A stretch of DNA of 64,000 bases from Actinobacteria bacterium RBG_16_68_21 (lineage in GTDB: Bacteria; Actinomycetota; Acidimicrobiia; Spongiisociales; UBA11373): positions 192 to 64,191 of the forward strand of contig MELR01000011.1 of assembly GCA_001767695.1 (NCBI GenBank), given 5' to 3'. This document shows, in pieces, positions 1-64,000 of the stretch. Numbering within the stretch: the first letter of the stretch is position 1; every line of letters starts with the position of its first letter. The notes under the pieces are model-generated. The model saw nothing but the letters and a program-made list of their open reading frames with translations, had not been told where the DNA came from and searched no databases. The translations under genes and the position numbers were made by a program.

Positions 1-172
1 TCCAAGTTTCCCTGGGCTATCCCGGTCTCCGGGGCAGGTTCCTCACGTGTTACTCACCCGTTCGCCACTAGGTGACCCACCTCGGTTACCCGAGATGGGA
101 CCCTCGTTCGACTTGCATGCATTAGGCACGCCGCCAACGTTCGTCCTGAGCCAGGATCAAACTCTCCAACGA
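1..172 (-). rRNA. rrs: 16S ribosomal RNA, 5' end only (gene continues beyond window start)
   Basis: Reverse complement of 1-172 reads ...TTGGAGAGTTTGATCCTGGCTCAGGACGAACGTTGGCGGCGTGCCTAATGCATGCAAGTCGAACG..., the universal 16S 5' terminus including the 27F primer site. Confidence 0.93.
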
Positions 173-5732: not shown

Positions 5733-8102
5733 TCAGCCTCCCCGCAGCCGGCCGCCGAGGTCGTCCGTGACGCGCGACGATATCGCCCGGCGAATCGGAC
5801 CGAGTTCACCATCCACCATCGTGCGATCGGGTGCCCGAAACGCCAGGCGGACCGCGACACTCTTTCGGCCCGGTCCCAGCGGCTCGCCCCGGAATACGTC
5901 GAATATCGCCAGCGACTCGAGAAACGGCCCTGCCGCGGCGCCCACCGTCGCGAGGAGGGCAGCAGCAGCCACCTCCTCGGCCAGATCGAACGCCAGGTCG
6001 AACACCACCGGCGGGTATGCGCTGGGCATGATGAAGGGTGCGGGGGCCGGTGCCTCGAGCGAGGCCAGATCGAACTCCCCCACGACCACCCGGTTCTCGA
6101 GATCCCAGGCGGCCGCCACCAGAGGATCGATCTCCCCGACACTCCCGATCCGGCGGCCGTCGACCTCGAGAAACGCCGCCCTCCCGGGATGCAGCCCCGG
6201 CACCGCCGCCTGAACGATGGTCGCCTGGTGCCCCAGCGCGGTGAGAAGCACTTCGGCGACTCCGGCGGCGTCACCCGCCTCGTAGTCGCCTCCGCTCCGT
6301 CCCCTGCGGGCGCCTGTGGCGGCAAAGGCGAGATGCCTCGGCTGCTCGGGAAGGACGCCCTCGCCCCGGAGAAACACCGACCCGACCTCGAAGAGCGCAA
6401 CGTCTGGACGGTTGCGCTGTACGTTTCGCCGCAATCCGTCGAGCAGCCCGGGCAGCAGCGTGGTGCGCAGGAACTCCTGTTCCTCGTTCAGCGGATTGCG
6501 CAGCCGGATCGGACGGCTGCGGGGATCGTCGGGAGCGAGGCGCAGCCCCTCCAGCGACCTGGCGGCGATGAAATCAAAGGACAGGATCTCGAAGAATCCC
6601 GCGCCCACCATCGCCATGCGGGCCATCCGCAGCATGTTCTGCAGGGGACCGAGCCCGCCACCCTGGCCGCTCACGAGGCGCGAAGGGAAGTTGTCATAGC
6701 CGTGGAGGCGAGCGATCTCCTCGATCAGGTCGGCCGGGCGGGTCACGTCGGGACGGAAGGAGGGCACGACCACCTGCAACGGATTGCCGCCCTCCACCGC
6801 GAACCCGAGGCGTCGCAGGTAGCCCGCCTGCTCGGCGCCGGCGATATCCGCACCGAGCAGCCGGCCGGCTTCGGAGACCGGCAGGGCGATCTCCACGCTC
6901 TGGTGGGGCCGGGGATGGGCGTCCACGAAGCCTCCCACCACACCGCCCCCCGCCACCTCGACCATCAGCGACGCGGCCCGCGCCGAAGCAGCCGGAGGGA
7001 GCTCCGGGTCCACCCCTCGTTCGAACCGGCTCACGGCCTCGGTGCGCAGGCCATGCCGCTTGCCGCTGAGCAGCACCCGGGTGGGCTCGAAGTGGGCCAC
7101 CTCGATGAGCACCCGGGTCGTGGCCGCCGACACCTCCGAGTCGCCTCCTCCCATGATTCCCGCCAGGCCGAGCGGCTCGTCGACGCCGGCGATCACGAGA
7201 TCCTCGGCAGAGAGCGAGCGCGCCACGCCGTCCAGCGTCGTAAGCGGCTCTCCAGCCCGGGCGAGACGCACCACGATCGTCTCGTCGGTGATTCGATCGA
7301 GGTCGAAGGCGTGAAGCGGCTGCCCCAGCTCGAGCATCACGTAGTTGGTGACGTCGACCACGTTGCTGATCGGCCGTACACCGGCGTCGCGCAATCGCAG
7401 CCTCATCCACAGCGGGGAAGGCCCCACCTGGACTCCCCGCACCTCTCGGGCGGTGAAGCGGGTGCACCGTTCGGGCTCCTCGATGATCACCCGTGCCGCG
7501 GTGGCCCCCTCCTCGGAGAAGACCGCGGTGGGGATGCGGACCGGCAGCTCATAGAAGGCGCCCAGCTCGCGCGCCAGGCCGTGGATCGACATGGCGTCCG
7601 GTCGATTGGGCGTGATCGACAGGTCGAAGATCGCGTCTGGGTAGGGCAGCGTCCCGGCGAAGTCCGTGCCCGGCGCGGCGTACCCATCGGGTAGCACCAG
7701 GATCCCGCCCTTCTCCTCTCCGAGGTCCATCTCGATCTCGGAGCAGATCATTCCCGGGGACATGACTCCCCGGACGGGCTTCTTCCCGATCGTGATGCCG
7801 CCGGGGAGCACCGCCCCCACCCGGGCGTAGGCGACGGTCGCCCCCTCGCCAAAGTTCCAGGCTCCGCACACGACGTCGATCGGCTCGCCGCCATCGTCGA
7901 GTGTGGCGATCCTCACCTTGTCGGCAGCCGGATGGGGCTTGATCGCAAGCACTCGCGCCACCACGACGCCGCTGAAGCTTGCCTCCCTGCGCTCGATGCC
8001 CTCCACCTCGATGCCGAGATCGGACAACACCCCGGCGACGACCTCCGCGTCGTTAGTGGGCAGGTCGACGAACTCCTTGATCCAGCGCAGCGAGGCCTTC
8101 AT
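5733..8102 (-). CDS. pheT: phenylalanyl-tRNA synthetase beta subunit
   Basis: Starts MKASLRWIKEFVDLP (tRNA-binding/B3-4 domains), typical PheT N-terminus; about 789 aa; the upstream ORF extension is spurious. Confidence 0.9.
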   Translation of the reverse strand: MKASLRWIKEFVDLPTNDAEVVAGVLSDLGIEVEGIERREASFSGVVVARVLAIKPHPAADKVRIATLDDGGEPIDVVCGAWNFGEGATVAYARVGAVLPGGITIGKKPVRGVMSPGMICSEIEMDLGEEKGGILVLPDGYAAPGTDFAGTLPYPDAIFDLSITPNRPDAMSIHGLARELGAFYELPVRIPTAVFSEEGATAARVIIEEPERCTRFTAREVRGVQVGPSPLWMRLRLRDAGVRPISNVVDVTNYVMLELGQPLHAFDLDRITDETIVVRLARAGEPLTTLDGVARSLSAEDLVIAGVDEPLGLAGIMGGGDSEVSAATTRVLIEVAHFEPTRVLLSGKRHGLRTEAVSRFERGVDPELPPAASARAASLMVEVAGGGVVGGFVDAHPRPHQSVEIALPVSEAGRLLGADIAGAEQAGYLRRLGFAVEGGNPLQVVVPSFRPDVTRPADLIEEIARLHGYDNFPSRLVSGQGGGLGPLQNMLRMARMAMVGAGFFEILSFDFIAARSLEGLRLAPDDPRSRPIRLRNPLNEEQEFLRTTLLPGLLDGLRRNVQRNRPDVALFEVGSVFLRGEGVLPEQPRHLAFAATGARRGRSGGDYEAGDAAGVAEVLLTALGHQATIVQAAVPGLHPGRAAFLEVDGRRIGSVGEIDPLVAAAWDLENRVVVGEFDLASLEAPAPAPFIMPSAYPPVVFDLAFDLAEEVAAAALLATVGAAAGPFLESLAIFDVFRGEPLGPGRKSVAVRLAFRAPDRTMVDGELGPIRRAISSRVTDDLGGRLRGG

Positions 8103-12029: not shown

Positions 12030-12100
12030 CCGCAATTGGCAATTGGCAACCAGTAATTCGCGTCGAAGGGGTTGTCTAACTGGAAATCTGGAAACTGGAG
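12030..12100. repeat. Heptamer tandem-repeat spacer (locus A): (GCAATTG)2-3 then CTGGAAAT-CTGGAAA-CTGGAG
   Basis: gcaattggcaattggcaacc (12032-12050) and ctggaaatctggaaactggag (12079-12099), between ribH stop and rnhB start. Confidence 0.8.
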
Positions 12101-15424: not shown

Positions 15425-15590
15425 CCCGTGGTCAGGGGCACGCGAGCGCGGGCGCGCGGTCGCGTGCCCTTCTTCTCTCATCCGGACTGTCACCGTCGAC
15501 TCCGGATTTCCACCGGATCGGCCTCTCGGAAAGGTTCGCGGGTTGTCACCGCCGGTCGGGAATCGCACCCTGCCCTGAAGAAGGGCTCTG
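15425..15590 (-). promoter_or_regulatory. FMN riboswitch (RFN element) with expression-platform hairpin, 5' of ribD
   Basis: Minus-strand reading has CUUCUUCAGGGCAGGGUGCGAUUCCCGACCGGCGGU...GUCGACGGUGACAGUCCGGAUGAGAGAAGAAGGGC, matching the RFN core (GGGCAGGGUGaAAUUCCCgACCGGCGGU ... GACAGUgAAAGUCUGGAUGgGAGAAGg). P1 is cuucuuc/gaagaag. The P1 3' strand overlaps hairpin GGGCACGCGA...UCGCGUGCCC (15435-15468) just upstream of the GGGAG RBS. Confidence 0.88.
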
Positions 15591-28945: not shown

Positions 28946-29000
28946 GGCTGAAGACTAGGTAAGCCTGCCGCGCAGAGCCCCCGTGGGGCGATCCGCAGTC

Positions 29001-29025
29001 GGCAATTGGCAATTGGCAATCGGCA
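29001..29025. repeat. Heptamer tandem repeat (locus B): (GGCAATT)2-GGCAATC-GGCA
   Basis: ggcaattggcaattggcaatcggca, between PilP-like gene stop (29090) and aroC start (28945). Confidence 0.8.
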
Positions 29026-29089
29026 TCCCCCGGAAGGGTCCGCCCGCAGACCCTCATTCAATCGCGCACCGCGGGTAGTGGGCCGCGGC

Positions 29090-29710
29090 CTATTTGAGGA
29101 TGCTCTGGCCGACCGCCAGGGTGAAGGCGCTCGAGCCGTAGGTGAACACGCCTCCGTTGTCGGTGAGGCTGACCACCTTGAAGTTGGTGGCGAAGGTGTC
29201 CCCTACCCCCACCGTGTAGGTCTGGCCATCGACCTCGACGACCGCCACCTTGCCACCGGCCTCGTCCCGCACCTCGAGCAACATCACCCTGATGCCGTCG
29301 GGGGTGTCGCCGCTCGTCGTCGTCGTGACACCCCCGGTCGTCGTGGTGGTGTCCCCACCCGTCGTCGTGGTGGTCTCCCCTCCGGCCGCGGTGGTCGTGG
29401 TCTCGCCACCGGCCACGGTGGTCGTCGTCTCCCCACCGGCCCCCGTCGTCGTCGTTTCCTCGGTGGGAGTGGTCACCAGGGGCTGGAAGGGATCGCGCGG
29501 CTGGGCGACCTGGTAGTCCCCGGTGAGCCCGATCGGGGCCCCCTGGGCTGCCGAGGTGTCCACCGCCCCGCTGTCCGGTGCGCCGGGGAGCGCGCTCTCG
29601 GCTCCCGTAAAGACCCCGGCCGACGCCATCAGCCATACCGACGCCACCGCGGTGCCCACGAGCAGCAGTGAAACGAATACCGACACCAGGGTTCGCTTGG
29701 CTCCGATCAT
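29090..29710 (-). CDS. type IV pilus assembly protein, PilP-like, with Thr-rich (GGETTTT)n linker
   Basis: From ATG at about 29710 (MIGAKRTLVSVFVSLLLVG, TM anchor); four-fold GGETTTTxA repeat; C-terminal beta-rich domain (GIRVMLLEVRDEAGGKVAVVEVDGQTYTVGVGDTF...); last gene of the pilM-pilN-pilO block. Confidence 0.55.
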   Translation of the reverse strand: MIGAKRTLVSVFVSLLLVGTAVASVWLMASAGVFTGAESALPGAPDSGAVDTSAAQGAPIGLTGDYQVAQPRDPFQPLVTTPTEETTTTGAGGETTTTVAGGETTTTAAGGETTTTTGGDTTTTTGGVTTTTSGDTPDGIRVMLLEVRDEAGGKVAVVEVDGQTYTVGVGDTFATNFKVVSLTDNGGVFTYGSSAFTLAVGQSILK

Positions 29711-29711
29711 C

Positions 29712-30350
29712 TCATGAGCCTCCCCGGTTCGCCTCGAACGACGAGTCCGTCGTCGGACCGGTCGTGGTCGTCGTGTCGCCTCCCAGCTCGCCGGCATCGA
29801 CGGTCGGCAGCAGGTCCGCCGTGGTGAAGAGCCGCATCTGGATGGTGGCCGCCAGAAGGGTGTTCCCCTCCTCGTCCTGGGTCGAGGACAACGACACTCC
29901 GTCGACCCGGACCAGGCGCTCCATGTCGTTCAGGCCGAAGAGGAACCCGAGCAGCTCGAAGAACTCCCCTTCCACCTGCGCACTGATGTCGATCCGGCGC
30001 AGCTCGGTGCCGTCCTCGGTAGGTGCGGGAACGGATGGCGACAGGGTCTGCAGGACCACTCCGGTCTCCTCGGCGAGGGAGTAGATCTGCTCGATGGCCT
30101 GATCGAGCAGCGGGCGGTCGGGGATGAGCGCGTTGAGCTTCCCCAGCGCCGCCTCGTACTCCACCCCGCGATCCCGGATCTCCTGGAGCTGTTGGATCTG
30201 CGCTCGCAGGCTGCCCTCGGTATCGACTGCGGCGCTCAACTCCCGGTGGGCGTCGTCGATCTTGGCGTTGCGCGGCGAGATCAACAAGAACCACCAGGCA
30301 GCCGTCACCGCCAGCGCGGCCAGCACGACGATCAGTCCCACGCGGCGCAT
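29712..30350 (-). CDS. pilO: type IV pilus assembly protein PilO
   Basis: 212 aa from ATG at 30350 (MRRVGLIVVLAALAVTAAWWFLLISPRNAKIDDAHRELSAAVDTEGSLRAQIQQLQ: TM plus coiled coil) then PilO-like periplasmic domain; TGATG junction with pilN. Confidence 0.7.
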   Translation of the reverse strand: MRRVGLIVVLAALAVTAAWWFLLISPRNAKIDDAHRELSAAVDTEGSLRAQIQQLQEIRDRGVEYEAALGKLNALIPDRPLLDQAIEQIYSLAEETGVVLQTLSPSVPAPTEDGTELRRIDISAQVEGEFFELLGFLFGLNDMERLVRVDGVSLSSTQDEEGNTLLAATIQMRLFTTADLLPTVDAGELGGDTTTTTGPTTDSSFEANRGGS

Positions 30351-33512: not shown

Positions 33513-33974
33513 TTACCAGCCGCCCTGGGCGTAGGCCCCAGGAGCAGCGTCGGGACAGGTGACGCTGAGGTCAGTGGCTCCGTACCACGTTCCAAGTGTC
33601 GAGCTCTCCCAGATGGCGAACGTGTTGCCGGAAGCGGCGGTCCGGGTCAGGCACACGGTGTCCGAGGTGGTGGCGTTCAACTGCAGCGCCACACCGCTCG
33701 CCGGGTTGGCGTTGATCACCGCGTTCGGTTCGAATGCCGTGATGTCCGCGGCGGTCTCGGTGTAGTCGCCGTTGTCCAGCCAGTACGCCTTCTCGGAGAG
33801 AAGGACGTTGCGGATATCGCTCTGGGCAGAACGATCCTGCGCCGACTTGCGGAACCCGAGGAACGAGGGGATGGCAATGGCGATGAGAACTGCAATGATC
33901 ATCACCACGACCATCAGCTCGATGAGCGTGAACCCTTCGTCGCCCTTAAGGCCACGTCGGATGGTCTTCATCAT
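33513..33974 (-). CDS. pilA: type IVa major pilin PilA
   Basis: 153 aa from ATG ATG at 33974 with GGAGG RBS: MMKTIRRGLKGDEG|FTLIELMVVVMIIAVLIAIAIPSF, canonical prepilin leader/N-methyl-Phe/E5 N-terminus; C-terminal Cys pair (C..C). Confidence 0.88.
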   Translation of the reverse strand: MMKTIRRGLKGDEGFTLIELMVVVMIIAVLIAIAIPSFLGFRKSAQDRSAQSDIRNVLLSEKAYWLDNGDYTETAADITAFEPNAVINANPASGVALQLNATTSDTVCLTRTAASGNTFAIWESSTLGTWYGATDLSVTCPDAAPGAYAQGGW

Positions 33975-34104
33975 TGTTCGAGAACCTCCTAGTGGTTTCT
34001 CTCGCGTGGGACGCAAAGTGCGACCCGTCGTGGTTATCGGCTTGAAGCCGCAGGGGCCTTGAGGGCTATTTCGCGATCTGGTCCGCGGCCGAAAGCTGAA
34101 CACT

Positions 34105-34153
34105 GACCTTCGACCTTGGACCTTGGACCTTGGACCTTGGACCTTGGACCTTG
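34105..34153. repeat. Heptamer tandem repeat (locus C, part 1): ACCTTCG + (ACCTTGG)6; on the pilA-coding strand (CCAAGGT)6
   Basis: accttcgaccttggaccttggaccttggaccttggaccttggaccttgg, perfect 7-nt period, about 130-180 nt upstream of the pilA start. Confidence 0.9.
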
Positions 34154-34200
34154 GAGAGACGTTCGCGAACGGTCCGGAGTCCCGAGGCGCATCGCCCGAC

Positions 34201-34248
34201 AGCGGGAGAGCGGCCAGCGGAAAGCGGGCAGCCGGCAGCGGGCAGCGA
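34201..34248. repeat. Heptamer-periodic array (locus C, part 2): AGCGGGA GAGCGGC CAGCGGA AAGCGGG CAGCCGG CAGCGGG CAGCGAC
   Basis: Seven in-register degenerate heptamers (consensus cAGCGGG) abutting the pilC stop codon (34249). Confidence 0.75.
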
Positions 34249-35475
34249 CTAGTTGTTGATCAGGTTGGCGATGTTGAACATCGGCAGGTAGAGGGAGATG
34301 AGGATCCCGCCGACGGCGACGCCCATCACGATGATCAAGATCGGTTCGATCAACGAGGTGAGCGCGTTCACGGTGTCATCGACCTCGTTGTCGTAGAAGT
34401 CGGCCACCTTGGCCAGCATGGCATCGAGGGCGCCGGTCTCCTCCCCGACGGCCATCATGTGGGTGACCATGGGCGGGAAGACCTCGTGCCGCCCGAGTGG
34501 TCCGGCGAGTGACTCGCCCCGGCGGACTGACGCCTGGACGTCGGTCACCGCCCGGCTGACCAGGGCATTGCCCGAGGTCTGCGCCACGATGTCCAGCGCC
34601 TGCAGCACCGGTACGCCGGTCCGGCTCAGCACCGAGAAGGTCCTGGCGAACCGGCTGATCGCCACCTTCTGCACCAGAGAGCCGAAGACGGGGGCCCTCA
34701 ACTTGAGGGTGTCCCATCGCAGCTTCCCGGTGTCGGTTCGCTTCCAGCGCCGGAAGACGATCACTCCCCCGAGCAGTGACCCGAGCACGACCCACCAGAA
34801 CTTGGTGATGGCGCCCGAGATGTTGATCAGTGCCTGGGTGGGGAGAGGCAGGGTCCCCCCGAGGTCCTCGTACATCTTCTGGAAGATGGGGACGACGAAC
34901 AGCAACATCCCGGAGACGATGCACACGATCAGCACCAGCACCACCACCGGGTAGGCCATCGCCGACTTCACCTTCGACCGTAGCCGAACACCGGCTTCGA
35001 GCGTGTCGGCCAGCCGCACCAGAGTCTCGTCGAGCGCCCCGCCCACCTCCCCGGCGCGCACCATCGACACGTACAGATGGTTGAACACGTCGGGATGCTG
35101 CTCGAGGGCCGCGGAAAGGCTGTTCCCCTGCTCGACGTTGGTGCGAACCTCGCCGATGATGCCCGCCAACGCCGGGTTCTCGTTCTGTTCCTCGAGGATG
35201 GCCAGCGCCCGGATCAGGGTGAGGCCGGAGTTGACCATCGTTGCCAGCTGCCGGCTGAAGATGGCGACTTCCTTGAGCTTCACCTTCTTCTTGAATCCTG
35301 GGATCGTGATCTCTCTGTCGAGACCGGACACCCGCTTGGCGTCGACGCGCAGAGCCGTATAGCCCTTCTCGCGCAATGCTCCGGCGACCGATGCCGGCGA
35401 GGAGCCCTCCATCGACCCGCTGTGGACGTTGCCGGATCGATCGCGCGCCTTGTACTCGTAGATTGCGGTGCTCAT
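34249..35475 (-). CDS. pilC: type IV pilus inner-membrane platform protein PilC
   Basis: 408 aa; MSTAIYEYKARDRSGNVHSGSMEG..., two GspF/PilC repeats with three TM segments. Confidence 0.88.
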   Translation of the reverse strand: MSTAIYEYKARDRSGNVHSGSMEGSSPASVAGALREKGYTALRVDAKRVSGLDREITIPGFKKKVKLKEVAIFSRQLATMVNSGLTLIRALAILEEQNENPALAGIIGEVRTNVEQGNSLSAALEQHPDVFNHLYVSMVRAGEVGGALDETLVRLADTLEAGVRLRSKVKSAMAYPVVVLVLIVCIVSGMLLFVVPIFQKMYEDLGGTLPLPTQALINISGAITKFWWVVLGSLLGGVIVFRRWKRTDTGKLRWDTLKLRAPVFGSLVQKVAISRFARTFSVLSRTGVPVLQALDIVAQTSGNALVSRAVTDVQASVRRGESLAGPLGRHEVFPPMVTHMMAVGEETGALDAMLAKVADFYDNEVDDTVNALTSLIEPILIIVMGVAVGGILISLYLPMFNIANLINN

Positions 35476-43808: not shown

Positions 43809-43906
43809 TGCAGGGTTCGAGGGTGGCGCATCGTGGGAAGGGTAGTTGGACCCGGGAGAGCGGCACGCGCGACGTCTGATGCGGTCGGGTCGGCCGCGGC
43901 CGGCGG

Positions 43907-44053
43907 CGATGAGCGATGGGAGATGGGCGTGACGCGATTAGCAGCTGGCGATTAGCGATGCGCAATTGGCAATTAGCCGCCTGCCCGGCGCGACTCTTGC
44001 GGGTTGCGGGCAGCGGGCAGCGGGTTGCGGGTTGCGGGCAGCGGGCAGCGGGT
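43907..44053. repeat. 147-bp array of about 21 in-register degenerate heptamers (locus D): GCGATGG GAGATGG GCGTGAC GCGATTA GCAGCTG GCGATTA GCGATGC GCAATTG GCAATTA ... (TTGCGGG/CAGCGGG)8
   Basis: Strict 7-nt register across the whole alaS-rarA spacer; ends 2 nt before the rarA stop codon. Confidence 0.85.
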
Positions 44054-44055
44054 GC

Positions 44056-45399
44056 CTACTCCCCCGGCTCTCTTCCTTCCCGTCCCATGCGGCGGTCGAT
44101 CTCGGCGAGACGCTCGGCGGTGGCCGCCTCGGCCCCGTGGCGCGACGGCCGGTAGAGGATCGACCCGGCGGCATCGTCCGGCAGGTACTGCTGGGCGACC
44201 ACCCCTCCGGGATGATCATGAGGATACCGGTAGCCGACGCCGTGCCCCAGCTGCGCCGCTCCCCGATACCCGGTGGAGCGCAGGTGGGGCGGCACCTCGG
44301 CGCCTGGGGTCGTCTCGACCGCCTCCCGCGCCGCCATGATCGTCCGTCCGATCGAGTTCGATTTCGGCGCCGTCGCCAGGTACAGGGCGGCATGATGCAG
44401 GGCGTAGTTCGCCTCGGGGAGGCCGACAAAGGCGAGCGCCTCGGCGGCGGCGACGGCGACCAGCAAAGCCCGGGAGTCGGCCAGGCCGACATCCTCGGAG
44501 GCGAGGATCACCATCCGCCTGGCGATGAACTCCGGATCCTCACCGGCGACGAGCATGGTCTCCAGCCAGTAGGCGGCCGCATCGGGATCGGAGCCGCGCA
44601 GGCTCTTGATGAACGCCGAGATCACGTCGTAGTGCTGGTCGCCTCCCTTGTCGTAGCGCACCACCCGGCGCTGCAGGGCCTCGGTCACCGCCGCCTCGTC
44701 GATCGCCTCCGACCCCCGGCCGGCGGAGATCACCGCCGCCATCTCGAGGGCGTTCAGCGCCAGCCGGGCGTCACCTCCGGACCGCTCGGCGAGCAGATCG
44801 CGCGCCGCGGATTCGATCGCCCGCGGCTCGGAGATCCCTCGCTCCGGGTCGGTCACCGCCGCCTCGATCAGCCCGGCGATCTCAAGGGGGCTCAGCGGCT
44901 CGAGGCGGAAGAGGGTGCTACGCGAGATGAGCGGCGAGTTCACTTCGAAGAATGGGTTCTCGGTGGTCGCCCCCACCAGGATGACCGTGCCGTTCTCCAC
45001 CCCCGGCAGCAGGGCGTCCTGCTGGCTCTTGGAGAAACGGTGGATCTCGTCGAGGAAGAGGACGGTGCGCCGCTCGTCCTGCTCGAGGCGCCGCGTCGCC
45101 CGCTCCAGCACTTCGCGGACGTCCTTGACCCCGGCAGAGGTGGCCGACAGGGCCTCGAAGGCGGCCGCCGATTCCGAGGCGACCAGTCGGGCGAGGGTGG
45201 TCTTTCCCGTGCCCGGTGGCCCCCAGAGGATCATGGAGAGCGGCCGGCCGGCGCGCACCATCGTCGCAAAGGCGGCGCCGGTGGCCAGCAGGTGCCGCTG
45301 GCCGACGACCTCGTCCAGCGTCCGGGGCCGCATCCTGGCGGCGAGGGGTTCGGCGGCTGCTCGCCGCGCCTCTCGTTCGGCCCCGAAGAGGTCGTCCAT
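44056..45399 (-). CDS. rarA: replication-associated recombination protein A (RarA/MgsA AAA+ ATPase)
   Basis: Walker A GPPGTGKTTLA, Walker B LFLDEIHRF, sensor motifs, MgsA C-terminal domains. Confidence 0.88.
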   Translation of the reverse strand: MDDLFGAEREARRAAAEPLAARMRPRTLDEVVGQRHLLATGAAFATMVRAGRPLSMILWGPPGTGKTTLARLVASESAAAFEALSATSAGVKDVREVLERATRRLEQDERRTVLFLDEIHRFSKSQQDALLPGVENGTVILVGATTENPFFEVNSPLISRSTLFRLEPLSPLEIAGLIEAAVTDPERGISEPRAIESAARDLLAERSGGDARLALNALEMAAVISAGRGSEAIDEAAVTEALQRRVVRYDKGGDQHYDVISAFIKSLRGSDPDAAAYWLETMLVAGEDPEFIARRMVILASEDVGLADSRALLVAVAAAEALAFVGLPEANYALHHAALYLATAPKSNSIGRTIMAAREAVETTPGAEVPPHLRSTGYRGAAQLGHGVGYRYPHDHPGGVVAQQYLPDDAAGSILYRPSRHGAEAATAERLAEIDRRMGREGREPGE

Positions 45400-53837: not shown

Positions 53838-55489
53838 GGGCACCACCCGGAGATGCTGGTGGACAGGTCTTTCTTCTTCGAGATCGACACCGTCTTCTCG
53901 CCGAGGACGTTGCCGTCGGCCAGGCACCGCTTGGCGACGTCGAATGCGCCGGCGTAGTCGACGAAGCTCGCCTCGCCCTGGTAGTTGGGCGGTAGCACGG
54001 TCCACGGTCCGGAGCCGTGAGGACGGTAGAGGAACTCCGCCCGGTCTCCGGCACGCAGGATCATGGTTCCCATGTTCCTCGGTCGCTCCAGACGGAGATC
54101 GATCGTGTTGTCGTCGTCGGGATCGAAGGTCATGTCGTCGGGACCGTGGCCCCAGATCGTCGAGGCAACCACCGTGTAGTCGACATTCCGGATGAGGCTG
54201 TATGTGCTCTGCCCGTGATCGTCCGTGGTGAGCACGATGGTCGGCTTCCCCGGTGCGGTGATAGTGAGGGTCGCGCCGTGGACCACCCGATTGGTGCTGT
54301 CCTTCACCGTGAACGTGACCAGGTTGGTGTTGGCGGGGACCGTGGTCGTGGTGGTGGTCGCGGCCACGGTGGTCGTCGTCGCCCCCGGCTGCGTGGTCGT
54401 GGTCGTTGCTCCCGGCTGCGTGGTCGAGGTGGTGGAGGTCGTCGTGGTCGTCGAGGGTCCGATCGGCTGCATGTGCACCGTGAGGTCGTGCACCGAATCC
54501 GGGTAGCCGCCGGGGATGTTGACCGAGGACAGCGTCCAGGTCTGATAGCCGGAGGCGGTCACGGTCAGGTCGTAGGCGTCGGGGATCAGCCCTGTGGCGG
54601 TGAGCACTCCCGGCGCCAGCGTCACGGTCTGATTAATCACCAGATTGTTGAAGGCGAGCTGCGGCGACGCCACAACCTGGCCGGTGTAGAAGTCGACCAC
54701 CGTGACCCGGAGCGTGGCGGGGCGATACACCCGCAACGTGGTCTCGGTCAAGGTGCCCGCGGTCACGTGCAGGCGGTCGTTGCCCGCCAGGACGTCGTCG
54801 GGGTGGATGATCCACCCGTCAGCGTCCTCGAGGGTGACCGTGTAATCGGCCGGCGGGATCGCCGGGAATACCTGCTCGTCGGCGTAGAGGGCCGAGGAGA
54901 TCGGAGCCGCCGGGGACGCCTGGATCTTGAGCGAGGGGAGGTCGTGGCTGCTGGGGGCGAACGGCTCGTAGGCGGCGAGGTACACCCGGGCGTTGGCGAT
55001 CCCCTCGTGGGCGCCGACGCTGCGCGGCGAGACGATGGTCTCCATGACCACCGGGTCGGCCTCCCGCCCCGCCGCGGTGACCGTGACCGTGACCACCTTG
55101 TAGTCCACTCCCGGGTCCCAGGAGCCCTGGACCCCGTCACCCCCCTGGGGGATGACATCGAGTCCGGTCACCGACCCGGCGTATCTGACGTCGAGGGCGA
55201 CGTCGTAGGACCGGCCTTCGACGGTCACCACGTGATGAGCGGTGAGGACGCCACCGGGGGTCCGCCCCGGCAGTCCGATTTCCTCGTACGGGAGGGCGCG
55301 CAGCGACTCGATCTCCGCCTGAGCGAGGTTCTCGGCCACCGAGATCACCCGGGCGTCGCCGATGCGCTGCAGGGATGCCACCACCGGTTGAATGGTGAGC
55401 GCGATGGCGACGGCGAGGATGGTCACCGCCACCATGGCCTCGACGATCGTGAATCCTTCCTCCTCGCGGAGGCGGCGCAGCGTGGTCAT
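53834..55489 (-). CDS. large minor pilin / pilus-associated adhesin-like protein with Thr-rich linker, 551 aa
   Basis: MTTLRRLREEEG|FTIVEAMVAVTILAVAIAL (prepilin signature), beta-rich domains, Thr/Pro linker TTTTTSTTSTTQPGATTTTTQPGATTTTVAATTTTTTVP, C-terminal domain ending in Cys. Confidence 0.65.
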   Translation of the reverse strand: MTTLRRLREEEGFTIVEAMVAVTILAVAIALTIQPVVASLQRIGDARVISVAENLAQAEIESLRALPYEEIGLPGRTPGGVLTAHHVVTVEGRSYDVALDVRYAGSVTGLDVIPQGGDGVQGSWDPGVDYKVVTVTVTAAGREADPVVMETIVSPRSVGAHEGIANARVYLAAYEPFAPSSHDLPSLKIQASPAAPISSALYADEQVFPAIPPADYTVTLEDADGWIIHPDDVLAGNDRLHVTAGTLTETTLRVYRPATLRVTVVDFYTGQVVASPQLAFNNLVINQTVTLAPGVLTATGLIPDAYDLTVTASGYQTWTLSSVNIPGGYPDSVHDLTVHMQPIGPSTTTTTSTTSTTQPGATTTTTQPGATTTTVAATTTTTTVPANTNLVTFTVKDSTNRVVHGATLTITAPGKPTIVLTTDDHGQSTYSLIRNVDYTVVASTIWGHGPDDMTFDPDDDNTIDLRLERPRNMGTMILRAGDRAEFLYRPHGSGPWTVLPPNYQGEASFVDYAGAFDVAKRCLADGNVLGEKTVSISKKKDLSTSISGWCP

Positions 55490-55612
55490 GGAAACACTGT
55501 CGGTAGGGTCTCAGACCACGTTGAGTAGTATTCACCAGGTGTCAAAGTGACTAGTCCGGTCGAGCTGCCCGCATTTCGCCACCCAGAGTGCACAGTGGAC
55601 AGCGGACGAAGC

Positions 55613-57799
55613 CTATCCCCCGCCGGGGAGCAGGCGGTAGGCGTCGTAGACCCCGTCGAGGCGGCGCATCTCGGTGATCGCCCGTTCCAGGGTCGAGGTG
55701 TCGGACAGCTCGAGCTCGAAGCGGAGCACCGCCACCCGGTCCCGGTTCGTGGCCGACGACGAGGAGACGATGTTCGCCCCCAGGTCGGTGAGCGCCACGG
55801 TGACGTCGCGCAGCAGACGGGGCCGGTCGAGCGCCTCCACCTGGATCGCCGAGCGGAACGACCCCACCTCGCCGGCCCAACCCACCTCGATCATCCGCTC
55901 CGCCCGCTCCCCGAGAGCCTCGATGTTGGTGCAGTCGGAGCGGTGGATCGACACCCCCCGACCGACCGTAACAAAGCCCACGATGGAGTCGCCGGGCACC
56001 GGAGCACAGCACTGGGCGACTCGCACCAGCATGTCGTCGAGACCCTCGACGACGATCCCCCCGGTGGGGGCCAGGCGGGTCGGCGAGTAGGCGACGAACT
56101 CGGGCTCGGCTTCCTCGAGAGCCTCGGCATCCTCGGGGCGCACCAGCCGGACGAGACGGCCGACCACGGTCTGCGGGTGGGTGTTGCCGTCGCCCACCGA
56201 CACGTACAGCGACTCCAGATCGCGGAACCCGAGGGAGTCGGCGATCTGCCCCAGCAGCTCGTCGCGTTTCGCTGCCGACAGCCCCAGGCCCTCCTTGCGC
56301 AGCAGTCGGCTGACCCCGTCCCGCCCCTCGAGCAGCGACTGCTCGCGGCGCTCCCGGCTGAACCACTGGCGGATCTTGGCCGCGGCCCGGGAAGTGCGGA
56401 CGAAGCCCAGCCAATCGCGGCTGGGACCATCGCTGCGCGAGGTGATCACCTCGACGATGTCTCCCGACTCGAGACGGGTGGACAGCGGCACCAGACGTCC
56501 GTTCACCCGCGCCCCGGTGCAGCGGTGGCCGACCTCGGTGTGCACCGCGTACGCGAAGTCCACCGGCGTGGCCCCCCGCGGAAGCGACTTGACGTCCCCG
56601 TTGGGGGTCAGCACGAATACCTCGTCCTGGTAGAGATCGAGTTTCAGCCCGGCGAGGAACTCCGCCGGCGTCTCGTAGTCGTCGGACGTCTCGGTGAGAT
56701 CGAGAACCGGTTCTTCCCCGGCCGGCGACTCGCCTCCCTCCTTGTACCGCCAGTGGGCGGCGATCCCCTGCTCCGCCCGGTCGTGCATCTCCCGGGTCCT
56801 GATCTGGACTTCGAGCGGCTTGCGGTCGGGTCCGAGGACGGTGGTGTGCAGGCTCTGGTAGAGGTTGAACTTGGGCATGGCGATGTAGTCCTTGAACCGC
56901 CCGTGCACCGGAGGCCACCTCGTGTGGATCGCCCCCAGGGCGGCGTAGCAGTCCGCCACCTCCTTGGTGACGATCCTGATCCCGATGAGGTCGTGGATCT
57001 CATCGAAGCTGCGCCCACCGTCGACCATCTTGCGGTACACCGAGTACACGTGCTTCGGCCTCCCGGTCACCTCGGCACTCACCCCGAGTTCGCCGAGAAG
57101 GCGTTCCACCTCGGCAACGACATCGTTTATGTAGGCGTCTCTCTCCGGCGCCCTGGCCTTCATCAACTCGACGACCTCGGCATACCGGCGGGGGAGGAGT
57201 ACCGCGAAGCAGCGATCCTCCATCTCGTGCTTGATCTCCTGAACACCCAGCCGATGGGCGAGCGGCGCATACACCTCGAGCGTCTCGAGGGCGATCCGCT
57301 GCTGGCGATCCGGATCGAGCGGGGCGATCGTGCGAATGTTGTGCAGGCGGTCGGCGAGCTTGATGAGGAGCACCCGCACATCCCGCGCCATGGCGATGAC
57401 CATCTTGCGGATCGTGGCAGCCTGCTGATCCTCCCGATTGGAGAACTTGACCCGCTGCAACTTGGTGACGCCGTCGATGAGACGCGCCACCACTTCGCCG
57501 TACTCGGAAGCCACCGCGTCGAGGGTCAGGCCGGTGTCCTCCACCGTGTCGTGGAGGAGTGCGGCCACCACGGTGTCGGTGTCCAAGCCGTAGTAGGCAA
57601 GGATCTCGGCGACGGCCAGGGGATGAGTGATGTATGGCTGACCGGTCTTGCGGAACTGGCCCTCGTGCTCTGCCCGGGCCGTCTCGTAGGCTCGCTCGAT
57701 GATCTCGACCGGGGCATGAGGGTGATGACGCCGGAACTCCTCGAGCACCGGGCCGATGTCGGTGATCGTCACCTCCGCGGGCGGACGATCCTCAGTCAT
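55613..57799 (-). CDS. relA: bifunctional (p)ppGpp synthetase/hydrolase RelA/SpoT
   Basis: 728 aa; HD hydrolase domain (HPLAVAEIL...HDTVEDT), synthetase domain (RxKD...YQSLHT), TGS and ACT domains. Confidence 0.92.
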   Translation of the reverse strand: MTEDRPPAEVTITDIGPVLEEFRRHHPHAPVEIIERAYETARAEHEGQFRKTGQPYITHPLAVAEILAYYGLDTDTVVAALLHDTVEDTGLTLDAVASEYGEVVARLIDGVTKLQRVKFSNREDQQAATIRKMVIAMARDVRVLLIKLADRLHNIRTIAPLDPDRQQRIALETLEVYAPLAHRLGVQEIKHEMEDRCFAVLLPRRYAEVVELMKARAPERDAYINDVVAEVERLLGELGVSAEVTGRPKHVYSVYRKMVDGGRSFDEIHDLIGIRIVTKEVADCYAALGAIHTRWPPVHGRFKDYIAMPKFNLYQSLHTTVLGPDRKPLEVQIRTREMHDRAEQGIAAHWRYKEGGESPAGEEPVLDLTETSDDYETPAEFLAGLKLDLYQDEVFVLTPNGDVKSLPRGATPVDFAYAVHTEVGHRCTGARVNGRLVPLSTRLESGDIVEVITSRSDGPSRDWLGFVRTSRAAAKIRQWFSRERREQSLLEGRDGVSRLLRKEGLGLSAAKRDELLGQIADSLGFRDLESLYVSVGDGNTHPQTVVGRLVRLVRPEDAEALEEAEPEFVAYSPTRLAPTGGIVVEGLDDMLVRVAQCCAPVPGDSIVGFVTVGRGVSIHRSDCTNIEALGERAERMIEVGWAGEVGSFRSAIQVEALDRPRLLRDVTVALTDLGANIVSSSSATNRDRVAVLRFELELSDTSTLERAITEMRRLDGVYDAYRLLPGGG

Positions 57800-58307
57800 A
57801 GGTGATCACGGCCCTCACCGGGACGTCGAGACGACCCCGGCCGCCCAGGAACCGCAGCTCGATCAGCACGGCCACTCCGGTCACGAGCGCCCCGGTGTGC
57901 CGTATCAATTCGACCGTCGCCGCCGCGGTGCCCCCGGTGGCGAGGACGTCGTCGACCACCACCACGCGGTCTTCCGGGCCGAGGGCGTCGGCATGCATCT
58001 CGAGGGTGTCCGACCCGTATTCCAGGTCGTAGGTGCGCGACACGGTCGTCCATGGGAGCTTGCCGAACTTCCGCACCGGGACGAAGCCGATCTCCAGCGC
58101 GATCGCCACCGGTGGCCCGAGGATGAAACCGCGCGATTCGATCCCGACCACCTTGGTGATCCCCCTCCCCTGCTCGTGGCGCGCCATGCCCGCCACCGCC
58201 GCCGCCAGGGCCGCCGGGTCGCCGAGGAGCGGGGTGATGTCCCTGAAGACGATCCCCGGCTCGGGAAAGTCGGGCACGTCCCGGATCAAGGCGGTGAGAT
58301 CGACCAT
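57792..58307 (-). CDS. apt: adenine phosphoribosyltransferase
   Basis: 171 aa; PRPP-binding motif VVVVDDVLATGGTA, FPEPGIVFRDITPLL. Confidence 0.9.
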   Translation of the reverse strand: MVDLTALIRDVPDFPEPGIVFRDITPLLGDPAALAAAVAGMARHEQGRGITKVVGIESRGFILGPPVAIALEIGFVPVRKFGKLPWTTVSRTYDLEYGSDTLEMHADALGPEDRVVVVDDVLATGGTAAATVELIRHTGALVTGVAVLIELRFLGGRGRLDVPVRAVITYD

Positions 58308-58333
58308 CCGGCGATTGTAGGAAGACGGCAGTC

Positions 58334-58422
58334 AGCATTTAGCAATTGGCGATTGGCGATTGGCGATCAGCGATTAGCGGCCAGCACGACTGTGCCTTGC
58401 CGGTGACGGGCGACGGGTGACG
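58334..58422. repeat. Heptamer-periodic array (locus E): AGCATTT AGCAATT (GGCGATT)2 GGCGATC AGCGATT AGCGGCC ... CGGTGAC GGGCGAC GGGTGAC GG
   Basis: In-register 7-nt periodicity across the secF-apt spacer; ends 6 nt before the secF stop codon. Confidence 0.8.
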
Positions 58423-58428
58423 GAGCGG

Positions 58429-59499
58429 CTAGCGCTTCTTGCGGCGTTTGCGGGGGGGACGGGGAGCCGCCCCCGAGGTGTCCCGCACCGAGGCGACGGT
58501 CTCGGTGGTGGCGGGGCGAGGTGCCGCTGCCTTGGCGGCGAACTCCTCGTCGCCGCCGCGGCGCTCGAGACGCCGCCGCACCCGAATCCAGTGCTCCTCG
58601 CCCTCCTTCCACACCCCGAGGATCGGGGCGGCCAGGAAGATCGACGAGTAGGTCCCGGTGGCGACGCCGATGAACAAGGCGAGGGCGAACTCCCGCAGGG
58701 TGGTGGCCCCGAGCAGGAACGACCCGACGAAGAGCAGGCTGCCGATGGGCAGGAGGCTGGTGAGCGATGTGTTCACCGAGCGCATGAAGACCTGGTTCAT
58801 CGACATGTTGACGATCGCCGCGAAGGTGTGGCGGTCGCCCCGCTCCTTGACGTTCTCCTGCACCTTGTCGTAGACGACGACGGTGTCGTAGAGCGAGTAT
58901 CCAAGAATCGTCAGGATGGCAATCACCGTTGCCGGGGTCACTTCGAACCCGACGAGGGCATAGATACCCGCAGTGAATATCAGGTCGTGGCCCAAGGCGA
59001 GCAAGGCCGTGGCCGCCATCTTCCACTCCATGCGCCAGGTGATGAACAGGGCCACCACGATCAGGAAGATGATCAGGGCCCGCAGCGCCGAGGCGGCGAC
59101 CGCACTCCCGAATGTGGGTCCGACCGACTGGCGGCTGGCCTCGCCCGGATCGACCCCGGCGAGGGCGGCCACGGTTTCCACCAGCGCATCCTCATTGGCG
59201 GGCGCCAGTTGGGAGGTCTGCACCCGCAGGCCGGCGCCGCCCCCGGTCGCCTGCACCTTGGCGCCGACGATCCCCAGAGTCTCGATGGCATCACGCACCA
59301 TGGCGACGGAGGCGCCCTGGGGGTTTTCCATCTCGACGAGCGTGCCGCCCTCGAAGTCGACACCCAGATTGAGATGGCGAATGGCCAGTGCCCCGAGCGA
59401 CACCACGATGATCAGCGCCGAAGCCGCGAACCAGCGCCGCCGGGCCCCGAAGAAGTCGAAGGTGGTGCTCCCGTGATAGAGATCCCGCCACACGCTCAT
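58429..59499 (-). CDS. secF: protein translocase subunit SecF
   Basis: 356 aa; six-TM SecF topology and conserved SecD/F motifs; long basic C-terminal tail. Confidence 0.88.
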   Translation of the reverse strand: MSVWRDLYHGSTTFDFFGARRRWFAASALIIVVSLGALAIRHLNLGVDFEGGTLVEMENPQGASVAMVRDAIETLGIVGAKVQATGGGAGLRVQTSQLAPANEDALVETVAALAGVDPGEASRQSVGPTFGSAVAASALRALIIFLIVVALFITWRMEWKMAATALLALGHDLIFTAGIYALVGFEVTPATVIAILTILGYSLYDTVVVYDKVQENVKERGDRHTFAAIVNMSMNQVFMRSVNTSLTSLLPIGSLLFVGSFLLGATTLREFALALFIGVATGTYSSIFLAAPILGVWKEGEEHWIRVRRRLERRGGDEEFAAKAAAPRPATTETVASVRDTSGAAPRPPRKRRKKR

Positions 59500-61250
59500 T
59501 TCGCCACCTCCCCCGGCGCGCCGGTGGCTCCCCTGATGCTGAACGCGCCACCCTCACCGAACCTGGTCTGGGCGACGAGGGCGACCGCGGGACGGGTGTA
59601 GAAGACAGCCACCAGGACGTCGGTGACCGTGGCGACGCCGAGGGCCAGGGCGAATCCCTTCACCGATCCGGCGGCGAGGAAGAACAACAGCACCGCGGCG
59701 GTGAAAGAGACCGTATCGGCGGTGATGAGGGTGTGGAACGCCCGCGTGAAGCCCTGGTCGATGGCGGCGCGCAGCGACCGGCCCTTGTGGACCTCTTCCT
59801 TGATCCGCTCGAAATACACGATGTAGGAGTCGGCGGTGATGCCCACCGAGACGATCACGCCGGCGACCCCGGCCAGCGTCAACGTCACCCCCGACCAGGC
59901 ACCGAGCAGCGAGAAGATCACCAGCACCGTGCTGCCGAACACGAAGAGGCCGATGACGTTGATCAGCCCGAGCGCCCGGTAGTAGAGGATCATCGCCAGG
60001 GCCACCAGGATCAGTCCGGCTACTCCGGCGACGAGGCCGGCCTTCAGCGAGTCGGAGCCGAGCGTCGCCGACACCGACTGCACGCTCGACTGGGTGAAGG
60101 CAACCGGCAAAGCGCCGTACTTGAGCACGACTGCCAGGTCGTTGGCTTCCTTCTCCTGATTGTCGGAGTTGCCCAGGGTGATCACTGCCGAGTCGCCCAC
60201 GATCCCGGTGGCCGGATCGACGTCCGAGGCGATCTGGGGAGCGGACTGGATCACCTCGTCGAGGACGATGGCAAACTGCCGCTGCGGATCACCGGTGGGG
60301 AACTGCGCCAGTTCCTTGGTGGTCTGGGTGAACTTGGCCGCTCCCTCCGCGTTGAAGTTCAACTGGACGATCCAGCTGCCCGCACCGCCCCCACCCCCGA
60401 GCGGGGAACCGCCGCCGCTCGCCGAATACTGAGCCTGCGCGCTCTCGAGGTCGGAGCCGAGCACCCGCGCCACCGACAGGTGGTAGATCGTGCCGCCCTG
60501 GTCGGCCAGGTAGGCGTCGAGGTCGGGAGAGGGATCGGAGGTGACCCCGGTGGTCACGTCGACACAACCCGGTTGGTCCACCTCGTCGCACCAGGTGATC
60601 CCCTCGGGGAGCACGACCCCGGCCTTGGGGTCGAGCGTCGTGGTGGTGGTGTCCCCGGCCACGGTCGTCGTGGTGGTGTCCCCGGCGACGGTCGTCGTGG
60701 TCGTCTCGGCTGCCGCGGTTGTCGTCGTCGCCGCGGTCGTGGTCGTGGTGTCGCCGGCGCTCGTGGTGGTCGTCTCCCCGACACCGGTGGTCGTGGTCTC
60801 CCCGGGCACCGTCGTGGTCGAGGCGTCGGGAAGGGTGGTCGTGGTGGTGGTCGTCTCCGCGACGTTGAGGAACACCGGGCTCAGCCCGGGGATGGGGCCG
60901 ATCTCGAGCACCGGTCGGAACTCGAGAAGACCGGTGGTGCCGACCGCGGCGAGTGCCCGATCGCGGTCGGTGACGCCGGGAAGCTGCACCTCCACCGCCC
61001 GATCGCCGACGATGGTGATCTCGGGTTCCTGGACGTTGCCGAGTGCCTCGATGCGACGCCGCATGATCGCCACCGCCTGCTCCAGCACGTCGGGGGGAGT
61101 CCCCTCCGGGGCATCGAGAACGACGGAGAAGCCTCCCTGCAGGTCGAGGCCCAGCTTGGGTGTGGTGTGCGTGCTCTGGGTGAGGAACAGAAGGCCGAAC
61201 ACGATCACCAGTGTGAGCGTAAGGGTCACCGAGGCGGTGCGGCGTGACAC
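59496..61250 (-). CDS. secD: protein translocase subunit SecD with Thr-rich tandem-repeat insertion in the periplasmic P1 domain
   Basis: 584 aa; SecD N-terminal TM, P1 domain, C-terminal six-TM block (LGLINVIGLFVF...); residues about 125-196 are (G/A)(D/E)TTTTT(V/A)A repeats (coding 60660-60890). Confidence 0.88.
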   Translation of the reverse strand: MSRRTASVTLTLTLVIVFGLLFLTQSTHTTPKLGLDLQGGFSVVLDAPEGTPPDVLEQAVAIMRRRIEALGNVQEPEITIVGDRAVEVQLPGVTDRDRALAAVGTTGLLEFRPVLEIGPIPGLSPVFLNVAETTTTTTTLPDASTTTVPGETTTTGVGETTTTSAGDTTTTTAATTTTAAAETTTTTVAGDTTTTTVAGDTTTTTLDPKAGVVLPEGITWCDEVDQPGCVDVTTGVTSDPSPDLDAYLADQGGTIYHLSVARVLGSDLESAQAQYSASGGGSPLGGGGGAGSWIVQLNFNAEGAAKFTQTTKELAQFPTGDPQRQFAIVLDEVIQSAPQIASDVDPATGIVGDSAVITLGNSDNQEKEANDLAVVLKYGALPVAFTQSSVQSVSATLGSDSLKAGLVAGVAGLILVALAMILYYRALGLINVIGLFVFGSTVLVIFSLLGAWSGVTLTLAGVAGVIVSVGITADSYIVYFERIKEEVHKGRSLRAAIDQGFTRAFHTLITADTVSFTAAVLLFFLAAGSVKGFALALGVATVTDVLVAVFYTRPAVALVAQTRFGEGGAFSIRGATGAPGEVAK

Positions 61251-61604: not shown

Positions 61605-63900
<2,296 letters not shown>

Positions 63901-63901
63901 C

Positions 63902-64000
63902 CTACAAGAGCCTCCCCTGCTCCACCTCGGTGGGTACCGCCAACCCGAGGTGCACGTACGCCAGCCGGGTGGCCACCCGGCCCCGCGGGGTGCGCTGCAG
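63902..64000 (-). CDS. ruvB: Holliday junction branch-migration ATPase RuvB, C-terminal end (partial)
   Basis: Minus-strand translation ...LQRTPRGRVATRLAYVHLGLAVPTEVEQGRLL* matches the conserved RuvB C-terminus (LQRTPRGR..T..AY.HLG). Confidence 0.75.
   Translation of the reverse strand: MQRTPRGRVATRLAYVHLGLAVPTEVEQGRLL

Follow-up and report, generated by a model that had tools for sequence, protein, structure and literature searches.

According to PMC4679880 and PMC4692102, heptanucleotide repeats constitute the most abundant class of long simple sequence repeats in many bacteria, some Actinobacteria included, and a polymerase-footprint effect on slippage has been proposed for the preference for 7 bp (Mrazek 2007, cited in both). 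Such repeats are intergenic, with a length and a sequence that differ among close relatives (PMC4679880, PMC4692102, PMC6749651, PMC2700814), and further cases comprise Geobacter metallireducens, Chloroflexus, the cyanobacterial STRR and the Beggiatoaceae TAACTGA repeats (PMC2700814, PMC6749651, PMC4679880). Altogether, intergenic heptad arrays have been noted for decades in cyanobacteria, Xanthomonas, Beggiatoaceae, Geobacter and some Actinobacteria, without an accepted explanation. Here, we describe such arrays in a 64,000-nt stretch of an Acidimicrobiia genome (the window, G+C content 68%), with emphasis on the spacer between secF and apt.

The arrays share with the LSSR5-11 of prokaryotes (Mrazek, Guo & Shah 2007, as reported in PMC4679880 and PMC4692102) tandem 7-nt units that are mostly intergenic, a dominant period of 7, a lineage-specific abundance, variability between relatives and a proposed origin by slippage; as a difference, many units coexist here in one genome, where an inter-operon spacer is often occupied over its whole length by two or three adjacent arrays. 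Indeed, as in the LSSR7/VNTR class, head-to-tail 7-nt units are repeated beyond chance, non-coding and polymorphic between strains (at secF-apt through unit swaps only). The intergenic arrays of Xanthomonas (GGGAATC) and Nostoc (GGGGAYT) number in the hundreds, with 2-26 units each and some in inverted pairs, and, as here, the same junctions carry them in related species with different lengths and sequences; these genomes use one dominant G-rich unit able to form G-quadruplexes (G4), whereas the units here are many and mostly not G4-competent (PMC4692102). The cyanobacterial STRR and the Beggiatoaceae and cyanobacterial TAACTGA repeats, for which RNA- or DNA-binding proteins were proposed, also consist of a genome-specific heptamer at many intergenic sites (PMC4679880), but in other phyla and with other units, and the TAACTGA repeats lie just upstream of start codons, whereas the arrays here run from stop codons to no closer than 20 nt from the -10 box. 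None of these units (CCCCAGT, TTGGTCA, CAACAGT, TAACTGA) was matched by those of secF-apt, namely AATCGCC/AATTGCC and CCGTCRC. At H. influenzae hmw1A/hmw2A and V. cholerae ctxAB (TTTTGAT), 7-nt tandems are placed between or upstream of promoter elements, and their copy number varies between strains and grades expression (PMC8262952, PMC12721329, bioRxiv 10.1101/2021.05.14.444153); these are single contingency loci of pathogens with a demonstrated effect, whereas the present arrays are genome-wide at housekeeping junctions, and any effect of theirs is putative. A literature search returned no report of heptanucleotide repeats specific to Acidimicrobiia. The mycobacterial MIRU-VNTRs are actinobacterial intergenic VNTRs that lie between co-directional genes and are polymorphic between strains, with units of 40-100 bp often translationally coupled to the flanking genes, against 7 bp for the units here. 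The secF-apt arrays belong to a known and mechanistically unexplained class of bacterial repeats, and they are not a new regulatory device.

The genes of the locus follow the order yajC-secD-secF-apt-relA on the minus strand, which is the actinobacterial arrangement, and the arrays are non-coding, since they lie between the secF stop and the apt start (Table 1). The transcribed strand reads, in order, stop codon, CCGCTCC GTCACCC GTCGCCC GTCACCG, GCAAGG and a short linker, then TAATCGC TGATCGC CAATCGC CAATCGC CAATTGC TAAATGC TGACTGC, and then CGTCTTCC TACAAT CGCCGG ATG. Array 1 contains more C than G on the mRNA strand, the linker includes the GCAAGG 'punctuation' (58395-58400; CCTTGC on the plus strand) that closes pyrimidine-rich arrays at many loci, and array 2 occupies about -69 to -21 from the predicted apt transcription start. 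Note that the 5′ end of a 16S rRNA gene is located at the edge of the window (1-172, minus strand), which shows that the minus-strand genes and the rRNA operon have the same orientation.

Table 1. Coordinates of the secF-apt locus and of the other heptad arrays of the window.
Feature	Position	Strand	Description
secD	59496-61250	-	ORF list
secF	58429-59499	-	ORF; Sec_GG and SecD_SecF_C domains from independent gene calls on identical contigs
secF stop codon TAG	58429..58431	-	Array 1 begins 6 nt downstream
secF-apt spacer, 121 nt	58308-58428		Flanking genes on minus strand
Array 1, three GC-rich heptads	58401..58422 (third heptad to 58421)	-	Sense CCGTCAC CCGTCGC CCGTCAC C
Non-periodic 18-nt linker between arrays	58383..58400	-	
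Array 2, seven AT-richer heptads	58334..58382	-	Sense GGCCGCT AATCGCT GATCGCC AATCGCC AATCGCC AATTGCT AAATGCT
Conserved -10 box TACAAT, 6 nt ahead of apt ATG	58314..58319	-	
apt start codon ATG	58305..58307	-	ORF and PF00156 Pribosyltran
apt	57792-58307	-	ORF; PF00156 Pribosyltran
relA	55613-57799	-	
Weak degenerate heptad trace right after relA stop	55582..55609		TCGTCCG CTGTCCA CTGTGCA CTCTGGG
Member A, ribH>rnhB spacer	12032..12099		Sense (AGTTTCC)n ... (CAATTGC)2
Member B, upstream of aroC	28988..29031		CGATTGC CAATTGC CAATTGC CGACTGC
Member C, pilC>pilA spacer	34096..34252		(CCGCTGC)n from stop codon, then (CCAAGGT)6-7
Member D, rarA>alaS spacer	43906..44056		(CCCGCTG/CCCGCAA)8-GCAAGAG-...-(NAATYGC)n
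Member F, ruvB>queA spacer	63775..63905		(CAGTCGC)3 (NGTTTCC)3 (CAATTGC)2 (GGAYAGC)4 (CAATTGC)2

The secF-apt arrays are real and strictly of period 7. Indeed, the division into heptads proposed in an initial annotation of this DNA proved exact on the plus strand, both for AGCATTT AGCAATT GGCGATT GGCGATT GGCGATC AGCGATT AGCGGCC (58334-58382) and for the second run CGGTGAC GGGCGAC GGGTGAC (58401-58421), and Tandem Repeats Finder detected 58345-58379 (period 7, 5 copies, 89% match) and 58405-58423 (period 7, 2.7 copies). Across the 121-nt spacer, 65 of 114 bases are identical to the base 7 nt further on, versus a mean of 30.7 (sd 4.6, maximum 51) in 5000 dinucleotide-preserving shuffles, none of which reached 65, and the only other outstanding period is 14, i.e., twice 7. 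Over the whole window, period 7 is the sole enriched period, with six strongly periodic regions; the other periods from 4 to 13 gave none except one region at period 9, and Markov simulations gave none. Exact heptamer tandems of the window are intergenic in 12 cases out of 18, although the coding share is ~74% or more.

In agreement with the family membership put forward in the initial annotation, heptad arrays with shared units were also found at five other inter-operon spacers of the window. GGCAATT/CAATTG units recur in the arrays at 12032-12049, 29001-29025, 43963-43977, 63779-63795 and 63824-63839, and the GGTGACG/GGCGACG unit of secF-apt resembles the GGCGACT present three times at 63880-63899. 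Counted by locus, CAATTGC/CAATCGC is found at five loci and CCCGCTG and AGTTTCC at two each; CAATTG occurs 12 times in the window versus 3.7 expected (3.3-fold), 10 of these 12 within arrays. The window spacers resemble each other only in their repeat units, over at most 27 nt, and the trace after relA also has 7 as its best period (match 0.86 over 14 comparisons). The six main array junctions split functionally unrelated co-directional units (ribH>rnhB, x>aroC, pilC>pilA, rarA>alaS, secF>apt and ruvB>queA). As side observations, the (CCAAGGT)n array at 34105-34155 lies ~130 nt upstream of a type IV pilin gene (33513-33974, minus strand), for which it could be an expression rheostat, and an FMN riboswitch (15466-15586, minus strand) precedes the rib operon, which ends with ribH just before member A. 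In addition, 27-nt (9 aa) Thr-rich tandem repeats lie inside three different proteins, i.e., SecD (60636-60820), a 551-aa protein downstream of relA (54325-54456) and the ORF 29090-29797 (29314-29459), where they yield long TTTTT-rich linkers; such an insertion is unusual in SecD.

The secF-apt junction had been described in the initial annotation as operon-internal, and our results argue against this part of the description. In each of the 17 sequences compared (the window and 16 relatives, L001-L020), a TANNNT box precedes the apt start codon by exactly 6 nt, with TACAAT in 13 of them, and the sequence upstream of this box is unconserved. In actinobacterial leaderless transcripts, the -10 box ends about 7 nt before the transcription start, which coincides with the start codon. 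The fixed place of the box combined with this leaderless layout suggests that apt-relA possesses its own leaderless-type promoter, conserved across the group, and the junction would therefore be an operon boundary. Note that a canonical sigma-70 promoter scan returned no hit at the junction, the promoter being predicted from the conserved -10 box alone, and that neither promoter scan nor direct reading revealed a -35-like hexamer at usable spacing. The other array junctions also separate unrelated units, and the genes of truly operon-internal pairs (secD/secF and apt/relA) overlap by 4-8 nt and are free of arrays.

The absence of an obvious terminator at this junction, implied in the initial annotation, was borne out, since the hairpin/U-tract scan of 58308-58428 found no intrinsic terminator site; over the 60 kb scanned, terminator-like hairpins were at chance level. 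The minimum free energy of the spacer RNA is -26.7 kcal/mol versus -31.9 in shuffles, and it folds worse than 193 of 200 of them (z=+1.74). Rfam gave no match at E≤1 in 58200-58550, and at the gathering threshold the whole window gave SSU rRNA and the FMN riboswitch alone. A structured RNA or a terminator was ruled out on these three grounds, and the arrays are no terminator hairpin, structured RNA or known RNA family. A hairpin between inverted arms was also rejected, because the two window arrays are direct variants and not complementary; in four relatives (L003, L006, L008 and L014) the second array is roughly the reverse complement of the first. Elsewhere in the window, three convergent gene pairs (1821/1832, 5722/5733 and 18111/18130) are separated by a gap of only 10-18 nt, with no room for terminators.

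When the species-representative genomes were scanned with SecF, the best matches were 85% (L001) and 81% (L002) identical, which assigns the window to uncultured Acidimicrobiia. Among the secF loci from 80 species, heptad arrays occurred only in the closest group (SecF ≥66% identical; L001-L009, L014 and L017), with about 25 arrays in its loci; none was found in the more distant ones (about 60 loci, ~600 kb of Acidimicrobiia and Actinomycetota), and no period other than 7 was enriched in the whole set. Distant relatives display secF-apt spacers of 0-60 nt. The arrays are a genome-wide family confined to one Acidimicrobiia sub-lineage. A plain spacer at this junction in close relatives was one part of the refuting condition set in the initial annotation, and this is what the closest relative, L001, shows (43 nt, non-periodic), but not L002 and about ten others, which carry heptads. 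In L002, array 1 is kept as the orthologous CCCGTCA CCGGTCG CCCGTCG without array 2, and the lack of array 2 in both L001 and L002 suggests a recent expansion. In the relatives, the units at this junction are mostly unrelated (e.g., CCCGCTA, CCGGATT, GCCGTCT, or TGTCTGA repeated nine times), and each genome uses its own unit set again at several junctions; GGCAATT as a clade-wide unit was discarded, since none of the other secF loci contains it. Unit sequences are replaced from one species to the next, and the absence of an array in L001 together with the differing units elsewhere suggests that the array is dispensable and rapidly replaced.

Variation was also observed within the species, among seven contigs of independent assemblies that match the window at 99.8-100% identity and have one and the same Apt. 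In each of the six strains with full coverage of the secF-apt spacer, its length is exactly 121 nt, with two alleles that differ by whole-unit changes at constant length: a swap between CAATCGC and TGATCGC, which is a CA/TG double change matching the neighbouring unit, and a second one from TGATCGC to TAATCGC (positions 58354/58355 and 58368, i.e., -62 to -42 of the apt promoter). The mismatch rate is 1.1% inside arrays versus 0.15% outside (Fisher p=8e-4); as the array alleles are common to several contigs, the mutational events are few. At pilC>pilA, (CCAAGGT)n is present in 6, 3+8 or at least 12 copies between 99.8%-identical strains (including L208-L212), and at rarA>alaS two strains are without exactly two units (14 nt), the flanking spacer sequence being otherwise identical in both cases. 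Copy number or unit order changes between strains, which is classical VNTR behaviour. In addition, four independent contigs (L210, L212, L216 and L086) end inside heptad arrays, indicating that arrays break short-read metagenome assemblies.

The differing units of each genome, together with the strain-level copy-number changes and unit swaps, point to hypervariable heptanucleotide microsatellites, and the secF-apt feature is probably a VNTR-like pair of them that fills the DNA from the secF stop to the apt promoter. The arrays would owe their origin and later changes to DNA-level processes, namely slipped-strand mispairing, or unequal exchange or conversion between 7-bp units, the whole-unit indels pointing to replication slippage as their likely origin, and they would persist only in spacers without other signal, from just past the stop codon up to the next promoter. 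Any effect on expression would be secondary and is unproven: Rho could load more readily on the secDF transcript, whose 3′ tail is C-rich and unstructured, and the variable sequence at -69 to -21 could affect the apt promoter. A selected function, as Rho-loading pad or for promoter tuning, is conceivable but has no support here.

A metagenome scan for (CAATYGC)3 extended the comparison to at least 120 contigs (L088-L207) with GC contents of 31-71%, i.e., many lineages; this count by itself is not a measure of over-representation. The loci contain 250 period-7 regions versus 31 for five control periods. Other heptad arrays are also abundant in these contigs, and many of them form inverted pairs; as an example, L154 (GC 51%) carries (GTCCAAA)n...(CTTTGGA)n six times and has the GACCTTG unit in common with the window. 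Three contigs of the scan, L125, L132 and L112, use the same unit vocabulary as the window and come from the same sample series, L132 having the highest tetranucleotide correlation with the window; their gene calls were verified by Pfam.

The strand composition of the arrays bears on a possible link with Rho. Stop-proximal arrays of the window and of its syntenic relatives begin between -5 and +6 nt from the stop codon (array 1 at +6), and their sense strand has more C than G in 13 of 14 cases, which represent few syntenic junctions, perhaps of shared ancestry. The seven array spacers of the window range from the 88th to the 99.96th percentile of sense-strand C-G skew (97.7th for secF-apt), and the 80-nt segment 58388-58467 ranks within the first 12 for sense-strand C>G skew; note that counts by intergenic type are approximate, as the GC3-based gene caller misses genes. 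These observations agree with a selected, rut-like pad, in which the C-rich, G-poor and unstructured heptads after the secF stop would load Rho when ribosomes leave, so that the secDF transcript would end before the apt promoter in a genome without intrinsic terminators. The weak folding of the spacer RNA and the chance-level hairpins reported above are consistent with such a pad, and known rut sites are also C>G-skewed, poorly structured RNA past a stop codon with regular YC dinucleotides (PMC6144790, PMC13650167). Two heptads space YC dimers by 14 nt (12-nt linkers), within the (YC)N9-13 spacing quoted for E. coli Rho (PMC6144790). However, rut sites are not tandem repeats, array 2 is not notably C-rich, the closest relative has no array, and the polarity itself fails in contigs that carry the same units. 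Indeed, in L125 and L132, the arrays next to the stop codons of radA, disA, a PIN-TRAM gene and an amidase gene have a sense strand richer in G than in C, and in L125, L132 and L112 the polarity is opposite or mixed relative to the genes, even along a single contig. Divergent and convergent spacers of the metagenome contigs likewise contain arrays, and array GC skew showed no correlation with background skew, which on short contigs mainly reflects coding-strand bias. A general rule of sense-strand C-richness, true of the window and the syntenic loci, was therefore abandoned, as it fails in L125 and L132; an RNA-level role may exist here, but would not be why the arrays exist, and we regard a selected Rho-loading pad as rather unlikely.

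The position of array 2 suggests another reading, in which it would act at the DNA level by binding a regulator or nucleoid protein or by tuning promoter geometry, unit changes then modulating apt-relA expression as heptads do at V. cholerae ctxAB and H. influenzae hmw1A. Such heptanucleotide repeats upstream of genes are functional precedents (PMC12721329, PMC8262952, bioRxiv 10.1101/2021.05.14.444153), the unit swaps between strains fall in the promoter region, CAATTGC-type arrays are the promoter-proximal ones at five of the six window loci, and the over-represented CAATTG palindromes recur every 7 bp and are nearly confined to arrays. Yet the units are wholly different at the same promoter in related genomes and absent from L001, while the -10 box is conserved in all of them. 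With a -35-like hexamer missing at usable spacing, no candidate binding protein, and CAATTGC arrays that also adjoin the stop codons of convergent genes (L132 and L138), a protein-binding array or promoter rheostat is distinctly unlikely at secF-apt.

Beyond the units, the arrays share a punctuation. GCAAGA was found 15 times in or near arrays versus 3.8 expected, mostly at their 3′ end, and pyrimidine-rich arrays of differing units share the ending GCAAGA(G), in the window (43995-44000) as well as in L003, L004, L007, L016, L112, L125, L138 and L143. A whole module, [C-rich heptads]-GCAAGR-[10-45 nt]-[NAATYGC heptads], is found at rarA>alaS and secF-apt in the window, and also in L112 and L125, where it is inverted relative to the genes. 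Moreover, L014 contains three copies within 10 kb (890-1065, 3197-3290 and 7037-7168, the second inverted) of a composite (TCAGATY)n-GAATGAGATCCTCTTCGA-(TGTCTGA)n, in which mutually complementary heptad arms flank an identical 41-nt core (CAGATCTCAGAATGAGATCCTCTTCGATGTCTGA...) and which behaves like a dispersed element. These composite copies, the module found in either orientation to genes, and the genome-specific vocabularies common to several loci would fit a MITE-, REP- or BIME-like element that inserts into spacers and then expands internally. We hold this to be unlikely as well, because terminal inverted repeats and target-site duplications were not seen, no transposase or RAYT gene was found nearby, window spacers are alike in their repeat units alone, and ectopic conversion between arrays would give the same picture.

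The same module could also be read as a polar element, [pyrimidine-rich heptads]-GCAAGAG-[spacer]-[NAATYGC heptads], created, homogenised or read by a lineage-specific activity and acting as an inter-operon insulator. The unit vocabulary specific to each genome would result from such an activity, for which a heptad-binding protein or a templated process that adds or converts repeats could be envisaged, and the insulators would serve genomes without intrinsic terminators; we consider this proposal quite improbable. Finally, the G-quadruplex or i-motif proposed for the Xanthomonas GGGAATC and Nostoc GGGGAYT heptamers has a counterpart in the template strand of the rarA>alaS array, (GCGGGYW)8, which is a G3N4 pattern, and in the (CGGGCAA)4 of L125 and L132. 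However, a G-quadruplex takes at least four runs of G3 or longer with short loops, and only two GGG runs are present in 58401-58428 and none in 58334-58382, while most units (GGCGATT, GGCAATT, GACCTTG, AGTTTCC) have no G-runs, which makes this structure scarcely credible for the secF-apt arrays.

Several observations also count against a microsatellite origin by pure slippage, which accounts neither for the restriction to period 7 nor for that to this sub-lineage. A small unit vocabulary is used again at several loci per genome, the L014 core lies in three places, different units share one ending and recur in one module, the spacer length is constant in six strains, and the sense strand of stop-proximal arrays is nearly always C>G at the syntenic junctions. 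Together, they hint that spreading, concerted evolution or selection was at work besides neutral slippage, within an explanation that we still consider to be hypervariable microsatellites.

At this locus, the result is mainly negative, with no regulatory RNA and no terminator, and leaves apt-relA with a predicted conserved promoter of the leaderless type. For the family, the lineage offers a clean comparative case, with array-bearing and array-free relatives of the same gene order, with strain-level copy-number variation visible in public metagenomes, and possibly with a recurrent punctuation motif and module. Heptad arrays could serve as strain markers, and the array-bearing lineage could help to address the preference for 7 bp and a possible replacement of terminators by arrays at operon boundaries.
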